Positions 29,201 to 32,200 of a DNA stretch of 64,000 nucleotides are shown piece by piece. Made by a program: the position numbers. Every line of letters starts with the position of its first letter. The stretch's first letter is position 1. The DNA is taken from the NCBI RefSeq assembly GCF_017348835.2, contig NZ_CP071375.1. One strand, written 5' to 3'. Origin of the DNA: Escherichia coli (GTDB lineage: Bacteria; Pseudomonadota; Gammaproteobacteria; Enterobacterales; Enterobacteriaceae).

Positions 29201-32200
29201 GACGGCTGGAGCCAGGAATAACCGCTGCAACGGCCGGGTTTGCCAGCGCGAACTGCAGCGCAGCTGCTTTAACGTTCACATTGAAACGTGTGGCAATGGC
29301 ATTAATTTGCGCCACTTTCTGCTGGATGGCCGCAGAGGCTTTCTGATATTCAAAGTGCTCGCCGCCTGCCAGTACGCCAGAGCTGTATGGACCGCCCACA
29401 ATGATATCCACGTTCTGTTCCAGTGCTTCTGGCATCAGGCGTTGCAGCGCACGTTCGTGATCCAGCAGGGAATAACGCCCCGCCAGCAGGAACGCATCCG
29501 GCTTCGGTTCGTCCAGCGCCAGCGTCAGTTCGCAAGGTTCGACGCGGTTCACACCCAGTCCCCAGGCTTTAATCACACCTTCGTCACGCAAACGCGTCAG
29601 CGCACGAAATGCACCGGTACGGGCAATGTTGAACTGCTCCAGCCAGCTGTCACCGTAGAAGTCCTGCGCCGGGTCGTGGATCCAGACAATGTCCAGACGG
29701 TCTGTTTTCAGGCGTTTCAGGCTGTCTTCAATCGATCGCAGCGTGGCGTCAGCAGAGTAGTCATTCAGAATTTTGTTTTTCAGGCCGTGTTCGAACAGGC
29801 CACCTTTTTCACCGAAATCCCGTTTTGCCGGATCTTCCATTTCGTCCAGCATGATGCGACCGACTTTGCTACTCAGAACGTATTCATCGCGTGGATACTG
29901 AGACAGCGCTTCACCCATGCGGATTTCAGAAAGGCCAGAGCCGTACAGCGGCGCGGTATCAAAGTAACGCACACCCAGGTTCCAGGCTTCGCTCACGGTG
30001 GCGTGGGCCTCTTCTTCCGGAATGGCACGGAACATGTTGCCAAGTGGTGCGCCGCCTAAGCCAATTTTGCCGGGGAGTAAATTTTTAATGCTCATAAGAT
30101 GTCCTCAATTATTCGGTTTGGGTTAGGGCGTTTTTTTGCTATCGCCCTGTGACGTGGATCACAATACCTTGCGAGGTTGTGACTTGATAGGACATAATTC
30201 GTCTGACTTAAGTCCTTTGAGGTCTAACATGATTGATTTACGCCAACTGAAGTACTTCGTGGTGGTCGCAGAAGAAGAGCACGTGGGACGCGCAGCCGAG
30301 CGATTACATATCTCGCAATCGCCGCTGAGCCGCCAGATTGCACAACTGGAAGAACGACTGGGGCTGACGCTGTTTGAGCGTAATCAGCAGCGCATTCGCC
30401 TGACCGCTGATGGACAGACATTCCTTGCCGAAACACGTTCGTTGCTGACACACGCCAACCGCCTGGAGTCGTTAGGCAAACGCCTGGGACGGGGGGAAGA
30501 TGGTGGCTTGTGTATTGGCTATATCGAAAACGCCATGCATTCCGGTGTGCTTTCTACGGCGCTACGTACGTTACGTGTATCGCGTCCGAATGTGCATATC
30601 GCACTTTACAGCCAACCACCGGCTACCCAGATTGAAGGCCTGCGCCAGCGCAGTCTCGATTTTTCTCTGGTCGATACGCCGCCCACCGACAGCGAGCAGG
30701 ATCTGGAATATATTCAGGTTCTGGATGATCGAATGTTGTTGGCCTTACCGCAAAATCATCCTCTGGCGCAGGAGGAAAACCTTGTCGCGTCACAACTTGG
30801 CGATGAGCAGTGGATTGCGGTGATTCATAACGACGATGCGCATTCTCGCGATCATTTTGTCGCCGCCTGTGTTAACGCCGGGTTTAATCCTGATATTCGC
30901 CTGGAAGCGGGTGAACCCCTCACGGCATTAGGTCTGGTCGCTGCGGGATTAGGTCTGGCCTTAATTCAACATAGTCTGCGTCATAATGCGCCGGAAGGGG
31001 TGGTATTACGTGAATTGCCGTGGATGAATTATTCAACGCAATTATGGGCAGCCTGGCATAAAGCCAACCAACGTCCGCTGGTTTCCCATTTCCGCCAGAT
31101 TCTGCGCGGTGAATAAAACGTTAAGCGGGAACCATGAGTTCCCGCTTGAGTTGAGATGTCAGTCCGCATCTGAGCTAATACACTTAAAGAAAATTCTGCC
31201 TTTTTCCGGGGACTCATCATTTAACTAATGCCGGATGCGGTGCTGGCGCGCCGCTTCCGGCATTTTACGCATTACTTCGCAATACGCTTGTACTTGATAC
31301 GCTTCGGCTCCAGCGCGTCTGCGCCCAGCGTGCGTTTTTTGTACTCTTCGTATTCGGTAAAGTTACCTTCGAAGAACTCAACTTTACCTTCATCCTGGTA
31401 GTCCAGGATGTGCGTGGCGATACGGTCGAGGAACCAACGGTCGTGCGAGATAACCATCGCACAGCCCGGGAACTCCAGCAGGGCGTTTTCCAGCGCGCGC
31501 AGGGTTTCGATATCCAGGTCGTTGGTTGGTTCGTCGAGGAGCAGCATGTTGCCGCCAACCTGCAGCAGCTTCGCCAGATGCAGACGACCGCGCTCACCAC
31601 CGGAAAGTTCACCAACGCGTTTACCCTGATCAACCCCTTTAAAGTTAAAGCGGCCAACGTAGGCGCGGCTTGGCATCTCGGTGTTGCCGATCTTCATGAT
31701 ATCCAGCCCGCCGGAAACTTCTTCCCAAACGGTTTTGCTGTTATCCATTGAGTCACGGAACTGATCAACCGATGCCAGTTTCACCGTTTCACCCAAAGTG
31801 ATGGTGCCGCTGTCCGGCTGTTCCTGACCGGAGATCATACGGAACAGGGTCGATTTACCCGCGCCGTTCGGACCGATGATCCCGACGATCGCCCCTTTCG
31901 GGATCGAGAAGCTCAGGTCATCAATCAGCAGGCGATCGCCGTAGGATTTACGCAGGTTGCTGACTTCCAGCACTTTATCGCCCAGACGCGGTCCAGATGG
32001 AATAAACAGTTCGTTGGTTTCGTTACGTTTCTGATATTCGGTGCTGTTCAGTTCTTCAAAGCGCGCCAGACGTGCTTTACCTTTCGACTGACGGCCTTTA
32101 GTACCTTGACGTACCCATTCCAGCTCTTTCTCAATCGACTTACGACGCGCCGCTTCTTGTGAAGCTTCCTGCGCCAGGCGCTGATCTTTCTGCTCCAGCC

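Follow-up and report, generated by a model that had tools for sequence, protein, structure and literature searches.

We have analyzed the control region of a divergently transcribed four-gene module of Escherichia coli, located within a window of 64 kb (the whole stretch of DNA under study, 64,000 nucleotides). On the plus strand lies the gene for a LysR-type transcriptional regulator of 295 aa (30229–31116; Pfam HTH_1 and LysR_substrate). Facing away from it on the minus strand is an operon, of which the first gene encodes an aldo/keto reductase (AKR) of 336 aa (29085–30095; Pfam Aldo_ket_red). This is followed after a gap of 19 nt by the gene for an SDR-family oxidoreductase (28268–29065; 265 aa as annotated), and then by that for an SRPBCC (Polyketide_cyc2) protein (27826–28242), the last conserved gene of the module. 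The start codon end of the AKR gene is at 30095 and the ATG of lysR is at 30229, leaving a divergent control region of 133 bp (30096–30228), exactly as delimited in a preliminary description of this DNA. The Shine-Dalgarno sequence of the AKR gene, GAGGA (30102–30106, minus strand), was read from the sequence and its CCTC columns show no variation among the aligned sequences; that of lysR, GAGG (30219–30222, plus strand), is conserved in the alignment and embedded in a conserved block discussed below.

No named NCBIfam family matches the regulator above its curated cut-off, the closest being AlsR, PRK09986 and HcaR. Its closest solved structures are 7w06, BenM, CatM and CbnR (E = 1e-29 to BenM/CatM), while those of the AKR are the L-galactose dehydrogenase-type AKRs and IolS. 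A literature search for a cluster of LysR, aldo-keto reductase, SDR and SRPBCC genes found nothing relevant.

The module was compared across 80 species loci from Enterobacterales, Acinetobacter and Pseudomonas, with the AKR start captured in 77. In all 77 the AKR gene is the divergent neighbor of lysR, and the SDR and SRPBCC genes follow it in most. The two regulator domains, the divergent operon and the conserved synteny are those of a divergent LysR/target module, bearing out the layout that had been proposed. In E. coli the module is horizontally acquired, strain-variable DNA, and the spacer is present at 96–100% identity in all 482 genomes that carry the island. The modules of Escherichia, Trabulsiella, Yokenella, Klebsiella, Yersinia and Raoultella (termed clade A) have LysR proteins that are 91–99% identical. 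Across all clades 60–65 of the 66 residues of the LysR DNA-binding domain are identical (91–98%), and the recognition helix is essentially invariant, with a single A/S position; the operator is therefore expected to be present in all clades.

Predicted overlapping divergent promoters

A consensus scan of positions 29900–30450 gave a single promoter, the predicted lysR promoter (30169–30198, plus strand). This comprises a −35 element TTGCGA (30169–30174) and a −10 element CATAAT (30193–30198) separated by 18 bp, with a predicted start at ~30205, and its columns are 90–100% conserved among 72 unique orthologous spacers. On the minus strand the predicted −10 hexamer of the AKR-SDR-SRPBCC operon is TATTGT (30161–30166), with a predicted start at ~30154. 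The TAnnnT pattern is shared by 68 of 71 unique orthologues; 69–72 of 72 sequences agree at positions 1, 2 and 6, and the middle varies. Located 18 bp from this −10 is a weak −35-like hexamer, CTATCA (30185–30190, minus strand), which is TTGGAC in Pseudomonas. It matches the consensus at 3/6 positions and is below the threshold of the scanner; such a poor −35 would be typical of an activator-dependent promoter.

Promoter elements are thus conserved in both directions, which upholds the proposal that the cluster is controlled from the spacer. The assignments were made from conservation and from matches to the consensus, and suggest that the spacer contains two overlapping divergent sigma-70 promoters, conserved wherever the four-gene module occurs, with inferred starts ~51 bp apart. 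This interdigitation resembles that of ilvY-ilvC, where overlapping divergent promoters are controlled by a LysR-type regulator with operators in both promoters at once.

A second −10 candidate on the minus strand, AATTAT, is found at 30199–30194. The alternative promoter CTCAAA-16-AATTAT (start ~30187) is less likely because its −35 is not conserved; it would also place the conserved block on the target promoter instead of upstream of it. Within the predicted AKR leader the repeat finder gave a dyad, AGGGCG-N12-CGCCCT (30125–30148, minus strand), a weak candidate for a 5′ hairpin spanning +7 to +30. The E. coli sequence folds with −9.2 kcal/mol (z = −3.1), and the median z is −0.9 across 71 orthologues. 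RNAalifold retained three pairs, with no covariation, and a conserved leader hairpin was left as a weak candidate. An Rfam search of the spacer gave no match at E ≤ 1.

A universally conserved block adjacent to lysR

The block at 30181–30227 (GAC-N7-GACATAAT-N7-ACTTAAGTCC-N4-AGGTCT) is conserved in every clade; a single copy of its motif is present in the window. Its elements are arranged as GAC-N7-GAC-N18-GTC-N7-GTC over 44–47 bp, symmetric about 30202.5, and it contains a sub-dyad AGnCC-N5-GGnCT (30211–30225) centered at 30218. Among 73 unique sequences, eight column pairs are at least 85% complementary about 30202.5, and five about 30218. A T-N11-A motif is present at 30208–30220 in 96% of sequences. 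The footprint of a LysR-type regulator typically covers 50–60 bp and includes two sites: a recognition site, of the form T-N11-A, close to −65, and an activation site close to −35 (PMC8407307). Measured from the predicted AKR start, the block extends from −27 to −73; it also lies over the −10/+1 of lysR, the start of which is likewise predicted. With its universal conservation, dyad symmetry and T-N11-A motif, this candidate operator next to lysR is most likely the LysR site. Part of the conservation of the block is explained by the −10, Shine-Dalgarno and start-codon context.

A similar organization is found for BenM, CatM and CbnR, homologous regulators with a divergent target operon, which recognize ATAC-N7-GTAT near −64 and have their activation site around −35; structures of the DNA-binding domain on DNA are available (4ihs, 4iht). 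Here the candidate operator also lies over the regulator's own predicted promoter, with the conserved 15-bp interrupted dyad AGnCC-N5-GGnCT at ~−64 from the predicted AKR start and further conserved half-sites near −33. However, the half-sites are based on GAC/GTC and not ATAC/GTAT, and the four GAC elements are tandem-then-mirrored instead of forming two separate dyads. The half-site grammar is ambiguous, with several overlapping dyads in an arrangement unlike the textbook dyad pair.

A palindrome that matches the CRP consensus

The preliminary description had noted an inverted repeat in the spacer, gtgacgtggatcac (30149–30162), and took it to be the operator of the LysR protein. The repeat is present, but as written its arms pair over 4 nt only (GTGA and TCAC), with a mismatch of C and A at the fifth base. 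Widening by one base on each side generates perfect 5-nt arms, TGTGA-N6-TCACA (30148–30163). As a generic inverted repeat the palindrome is unremarkable. With loops of 0–12 nt allowed, the spacer contains four inverted repeats of 5 nt, compared with 1.36 expected from shuffled sequences (P = 0.08), and the palindrome was not among the output of the repeat finder with a 6-nt minimum.

As a match to a specific consensus, by contrast, it is far beyond chance. The consensus site of the cAMP receptor protein (CRP) is the palindrome TGTGA-N6-TCACA, with a 6-bp spacer (PMC10187061). The near-consensus site TGTGAcgtggaTCACA (30148–30163; center 30155.5, putative 22-bp contact region 30145–30166) matches this core at 10/10 positions, and is the sole TGTGA-N6-TCACA in 64 kb, where 0.06 are expected. 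On a position weight matrix (PWM) for CRP derived from 107 ChIP-seq sites bound in vivo in ETEC H10407 (PMC4287617) the palindrome scores 19.5 bits, whereas the bound sites have a median of 13.06; it ranks 4/107, within the top few per cent. It is the top-scoring 16-mer of the window, the second being the known yjjI/deoC site, which acts as a positive control. The H10407 ChIP-seq table contains no peak past deoC; this strain is without the island, so that the palindrome is outside the genome of that assay. The sequence fits neither LexA (CTGT-N8-ACAG) nor FNR (TTGAT-N4-ATCAA).

Perfect TGTGA-N6-TCACA cores are found in the bound CRP sites of ycfQ/bhsA (TGTGATCTGGATCACA), maa, mtlA and ygcW/yqcE (PMC4287617 Table 1), with which the palindrome shares the 5+5 core, the 6-bp spacer and a location between divergent genes. 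It differs from canonical sites in having G+C-rich flanks (CCC...ATA and not AAA...TTT), and in lying on strain-variable, horizontally acquired DNA.

The site lies at the same distance from the lysR ATG (−81) in all 10 clade-A species loci, where it scores 16.3–19.5 bits on the CRP matrix and N6 takes five different forms. Comparison of 13 clade-A sequences reveals that 10/10 half-site columns are invariant, as are 3/6 columns of N6 and 23/65 (35%) of the background; for half-sites versus background P ~1e-4, a value that takes no account of phylogenetic non-independence among such close relatives (LysR identity at least 91%). A 34-mer around the palindrome is kept with no more than one mismatch in all 482 island-positive E. 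coli genomes, and every sampled population variant of it falls outside the half-sites.

Could the palindrome nevertheless be fortuitous, with no regulatory role, and conserved in clade A through recent divergence? The clade-A modules are closely related, generic inverted repeats of this kind are not unusual, and high-scoring CRP sites that are non-functional do exist, such as the unoccupied plasmid sites in ETEC (PMC4287617). Yet the half-site columns are all fixed, compared with about a third of the background, while three of the six N6 columns change, and a 19.5-bit site is expected only ~0.06 times per 64 kb. We regard a chance origin as very unlikely.

Among the orthologous spacers compared, TGTGA-N6-TCACA is found in clade A only. 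It is absent from those of Serratia, Ewingella, Xenorhabdus, Acinetobacter and ~60 Pseudomonas species, and the spacers outside clade A score ≤2.5 bits on the CRP matrix at the palindrome position. Since the DNA-binding domain of LysR is nearly identical everywhere, this distribution argues against the palindrome being its operator. The original assignment, in which the adjacent LysR would control both its own gene and the AKR operon from this dyad, had in its favor that divergent LysR spacers are the usual location of such operators, and that the palindrome adjoins the lysR −35. But the other clades lack the palindrome despite having the same recognition helix; it is T-N14-A and not T-N11-A; it is downstream of the predicted AKR −10 and not at −65/−35; and it is a perfect fit to the consensus of another protein. 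It is the block at 30181–30227 that is conserved everywhere, with LysR-type geometry relative to the predicted starts. A role for the palindrome as the LysR operator is therefore highly improbable. From its core, its weight-matrix score and the selective conservation of its half-sites, the palindrome is very probably recognized by CRP, the global sugar-sensing regulator, and not by LysR.

A third TGTGA at 30178–30182 creates a direct repeat (TGTGACGTG/TGTGACTTG, spacing 30) and the arrangement TCACAA-N12-TTGTGA. It was rejected as a second CRP half-site or LysR repeat, since the orthologues have TATGA, TAGGA, TCTGA and TGCGA, and only GAC is conserved.

Position of the putative CRP site and a proposed model for control

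The putative CRP site covers the final 3 nt of the predicted AKR −10 together with the predicted start. Its center is at ~−1.5 from the predicted AKR start and ~−49.5 from that of lysR, neither of which is a class I (−61.5, −71.5 ...) or class II (−41.5) distance, so that neither class of activation fits; this distance criterion defines activating CRP sites only, and not CRP binding as such, and both starts are predicted. Nor does the position correspond, for either predicted start, to the −40.5/−41.5 or −61.5/−92.5 of canonical sites. A class I or II CRP-dependent promoter was rejected on either strand, there being no suitable −10.

Most CRP sites activate, and this is a counterpoint to any repressive role. 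A genuine CRP site might stimulate either lysR or the AKR operon, with transcription beginning at a position other than that predicted, and both starts here are predictions only. The distances of CRP sites from transcription starts have maxima near −40.5 and −92.5 (PMC4287617). CRP acting together with a pathway-specific regulator is a common design, as in catabolite-controlled operons with a LysR-type activator. Against this, no hexamer with A2 and T6 exists at the class II distance (CTAACC on the minus strand; TGATAG/GATAGG on the plus), the leftward class I distance lands within the AKR start codon, and clade-A insertions of 13–17 nt to the left of the site leave no fixed helical phase. The distance from the conserved lysR promoter is also unsuitable. 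We consider activation unlikely.

The location of the site on the predicted AKR −10/+1 suggests instead that CRP would repress the operon. CRP acts as a repressor at or downstream of the core promoter in cyaA P2 and osmY. CRP represses when its site is downstream of the promoter region; known cases are pck at high cAMP-CRP and a minority of downstream sites (PMC10187061). Like repressing sites of the CRP family, the palindrome overlaps a predicted −10/+1, but unlike pck and similar cases the sign of regulation here comes from predicted geometry.

The model that we consider probable combines divergent sigma-70 promoters, LysR bound to 30181–30227, and a CRP site at 30148–30163, confined to clade A, that would occlude the AKR promoter. 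lysR would be driven rightwards from TTGCGA/CATAAT, and AKR-SDR-SRPBCC from a weak leftward promoter. LysR bound to the block would cover its own −10/+1, giving autorepression, and the reach of the block from ~−73 to −27 of the AKR promoter would have the usual geometry of recognition and activation sites, which could provide ligand-dependent activation. Of the branches of the module, only that of Escherichia/Klebsiella/Yersinia would have gained the CRP site. Occlusion of the AKR promoter by cAMP-CRP would then add a link to carbon status to the control that LysR exerts on the operon. ilvY-ilvC is not known to carry a CRP site.

The analysis would reassign the palindrome from LysR to CRP, and provides coordinates for a candidate LysR operator and both predicted promoters. 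The 80-species comparison separates a portable part, the promoters and candidate LysR operator, which are unchanged between Pseudomonas and E. coli, from a host-specific addition, the putative CRP site, and illustrates how transferred gene clusters can gain global control by the host. The control region is ordinary for bacteria but well resolved, and the physiological pay-off is modest for now.

A broader reading is more tentative, and we hold it as a possibility that is somewhat doubtful. A mobile LysR-oxidoreductase module may have been wired into the carbon-status network of its recipient in one enterobacterial lineage, through a CRP site at −10/+1 with CRP as gate or repressor atop an unchanged LysR switch. 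If true, a case of regulatory capture following gene transfer would here be dated and resolved at the level of sequence. Conversion to a CRP site would have come at the cost of a weaker −10, from TATATT/TATCTT to TATTGT.

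The divergent gene module and its distribution

The sequence studied is E. coli chromosome, with 100% identity to strain PE164. On the minus strand, the start codon of the aldo/keto reductase (AKR) gene ends at 30095; the plus-strand LysR-type gene begins at 30229. The intervening spacer is therefore exactly 133 bp (30096-30228), as the preliminary description had it. Pfam domains are HTH_1 and LysR_substrate for the regulator, and Aldo_ket_red (AKR), adh_short (SDR) and Polyketide_cyc2 (SRPBCC) for the operon; all four proteins fall short of the curated cut-offs for named NCBIfam families. 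The nearest solved structures are 7w06 and BenM/CatM/CbnR for the regulator, and L-galactose-dehydrogenase-type AKRs and IolS for the AKR. A literature search on this combination of genes found nothing relevant.

The cluster is a strain-variable insert in the nadR/ettA interval, carried by 482 of the 5,426 complete E. coli genomes; in ETEC H10407 the interval contains just a fragment of a NadS-family gene. The insert (27000-31250; GC 53%, near that of the flanks) also holds an Old-Yellow-Enzyme fragment and a small YdgH/BhsA/McbA-family (DUF1471) gene. The former, an N-terminal fragment of an NADH:flavin oxidoreductase (27216-27407; Oxidored_FMN, profile residues ~12-65), carries the annotation of an incomplete pseudogene (27261-27374, minus strand) and probably survives from a larger ancestral redox cluster. 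The DUF1471 gene (27456-27668, minus strand) is outside the module conserved in other genera. It lies downstream of SRPBCC across a gap of ~157 nt, in which no terminator-like site was found.

The LysR protein was scanned against one genome per species, giving 80 loci with amino-acid identities of 71-99%. Clade A comprises the Escherichia, Trabulsiella, Yokenella, Klebsiella MAG, Yersinia and Raoultella copies, whose LysR proteins are all at least 91% identical; beyond it the set contains Serratia, Ewingella, Xenorhabdus, two Acinetobacter and ~60 Pseudomonas. AKR is the divergent neighbour in all 77 of the 77 loci where its start was captured, bearing out the proposed layout, and SDR and SRPBCC come next in most loci. 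The SDR is missing from L023, L029, L048 and L051 (P. batumici / P. gingeri group), where SRPBCC follows AKR directly. The Yersinia modules (L008, L009) are 91-92% identical to that of E. coli, and those of Serratia (L011-L013) only 83%. Since the Yersinia copies are the closer to E. coli, in conflict with the species phylogeny, the sequences indicate recent horizontal transfer among enterics. The Acinetobacter copies are ~75% identical, grouping with the Pseudomonas level of divergence.

The palindrome as a probable CRP site

An inverted repeat, gtgacgtggatcac, had been noted in the spacer. It lies at 30149-30162; of the arms as written, only GTGA/TCAC pair. Widened by one base per side the repeat becomes TGTGA-N6-TCACA (30148-30163), the consensus for CRP/CAP (PMC10187061). 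Inverted repeats of this generic sort are nothing unusual here: the spacer contains four with 5-nt arms, against 1.36 expected (P = 0.08). The full TGTGA-N6-TCACA pattern occurs once in 64 kb, with 0.06 expected. A third TGTGA in the spacer was tried and rejected.

We scored the site with a symmetric weight matrix built from the 107 CRP 16-mers of the ETEC H10407 ChIP-seq table (PMC4287617). It scores 19.5 of a maximum 22.1 bits (bound-site median 13.06), and would place 4th among those 107 sites. It is the top 16-mer in the window, 5.7 bits ahead of the second, TGTGATGTATATCGAA (16692-16707, 13.8 bits), which is the ChIP-seq-verified yjjI/deoC CRP site and thus a positive control for the matrix. 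Another match is found at 16639-16654 (12.2 bits). The H10407 ChIP-seq data were of no help for the spacer site.

In each of the ten clade-A species loci the site lies at the same offset, -81 from the lysR ATG, and scores 16.3-19.5 bits; N6 comes in five versions. Across 13 clade-A sequences the invariant columns are 10 of 10 in the half-sites, 3 of 6 in N6 and 23 of 65 in the background (naive P ~3e-5; hypergeometric 1e-4). The surrounding 34-mer is retained with at most one mismatch in 482 of 482 island-positive E. coli genomes, and the sampled variants all lie outside the half-sites. The palindrome might be a chance one without a role, the count of inverted repeats being unexceptional; given the conservation of its half-sites, we regard this as very improbable.

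Other clades score at most 2.5 bits at the homologous position (for example cGTCAcgaggcTAAAG in Serratia). Because the site is missing in Acinetobacter, Pseudomonas and Serratia, parsimony suggests that it was gained on the branch to clade A. At the equivalent of ~30140-30168, the place of the CRP site in clade A, Pseudomonas spacers carry their own clade-specific conserved stretch, GTGACCGTTGAGCAGATCCTAGA, which is unlike a CRP/Vfr site; the best score anywhere in a Pseudomonas spacer is 8.9 bits.

The preliminary description had taken the palindrome, lying as it does between divergent LysR and AKR genes, for a candidate LysR operator. In all clades, 60-65 of the first 66 LysR residues are identical; in the recognition helix, ISQSPLSRQI(A/S)QLE, only the A/S position varies among 81 sequences. 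If the DNA-reading part of a protein is unchanged, its primary operator cannot be confined to one clade, so this conservation pattern refutes the assignment, to which we give almost no credence. At the level of sequence the palindrome has every feature of a CRP site, apart from an activating distance.

Predicted promoters and the conserved block

A consensus scan reported a sole promoter, a predicted sigma-70 promoter for lysR on the plus strand (-35 TTGCGA, 30169-30174; 18-bp spacer; -10 CATAAT, 30193-30198). Among 72 unique spacers its columns show 90-100% conservation, and the predicted start is ~30205. On the minus strand the hexamer at 30166-30161 fits TAnnnT in 68 of the 71 unique orthologues (examples are TATTGT, TAGGAT, TATATT, TAGTAT and TACGAT). 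Near-invariance at positions 1, 2 and 6 combined with a free middle is what marks a -10 element, and so we predict this to be the AKR -10. A weak -35-like hexamer (CTATCA; TTGGAC in Pseudomonas) lies 18 bp upstream, and transcription would start near 30154. The two predicted promoters interdigitate.

Spacers range from 99 to 229 bp, and the ~75 nt closest to lysR align without gaps. Insertions all fall between the AKR ribosome-binding site and the conserved core, from which we take the stretch beside that site to be a tolerant leader with the promoter to its right. The REP-like palindromic insertions of Pseudomonas (ctgtaggagccggcttgc...gcaagccggctcctacag; L022, L024, L037, L065 and L071, spacers 149-229 bp) show that the leader tolerates big insertions. 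Loci L006-L010 (Klebsiella MAG, Trabulsiella odontotermitis, Yersinia, Raoultella) have an additional 13-17-nt CCCG-N3-5-CGGG mini-hairpin, absent from the E. coli leader.

Next to lysR lies a block (30181-30227) that, like the two predicted promoters, is shared by all the clades, GAC-N7-GACATAAT-N7-ACTTAAGTCC-N4-AGGTCT. Eight column pairs are at least 85% complementary about 30202.5 (GAC-N7-GAC-N18-GTC-N7-GTC), with a sub-dyad AGnCC-N5-GGnCT centered at 30218; T-N11-A at 30208-30220 is present in 96% of sequences. The block covers the predicted lysR -10/+1 and spans -27 to -73 from the predicted AKR start, with the GAC-N7-GAC pair at -33 and the sub-dyad at -64. LysR-type regulators are described as having such a layout: they leave a footprint of 50-60 bp, recognize T-N11-A near -65, use an activation site near -35 and repress their own gene (PMC8407307). 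Judged by sequence and by position relative to predicted starts, the block qualifies as a candidate LysR-type operator, with an ambiguous half-site grammar of tandem-then-mirrored GAC elements. It is most degenerate in Xenorhabdus (L015), whose module lacks SDR and SRPBCC.

Position of the probable CRP site and the predicted AKR leader

The CRP site and the conserved block both belong to already known kinds. The CRP site is centered at 30155.5, ~-1.5 from the predicted AKR start and ~-49.5 from that of lysR, at neither class I nor class II activation distance from either. It overlaps the predicted AKR -10 by that element's final three bases (minus strand TAT[TGTGA]TCCACG[TCACA]), and from positions at the core promoter or downstream of it CRP-family proteins repress (PMC10187061). 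That the site activates an unmapped start seems to us unlikely but worth keeping in mind; at class II distance neither strand offers a hexamer whose second base is A and sixth base T, and, given the variable insertions, nothing further left can be in fixed phase with the site.

Taking both starts as predicted, we infer which protein occupies each site and the sign of the CRP effect. In our preferred model, LysR would bind 30181-30227 and autorepress, and ligand-bound LysR would activate AKR-SDR-SRPBCC. In clade A only, cAMP-CRP would additionally occupy 30148-30163, most likely occluding the AKR promoter, so that the operon would be favored at low cAMP. In evolutionary terms, a portable LysR switch would have stayed intact across genera, Pseudomonas to E. 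coli; one lineage would have added a CRP input specific to the host.

The predicted AKR leader begins with a G+C-rich dyad, AGGGCG-N12-CGCCCT in E. coli (30125-30148). This may be a 5' stabilizing hairpin, with weak statistics (median z = -0.9, 71 orthologues); it was pursued as a conserved element without result, and the spacer has no Rfam match. Leader dyads of unrelated sequence occur in other clades, GGCAGT-N9-ACTGCC in Acinetobacter (L016/L017) and GGTCA...TGACC in Pseudomonas.
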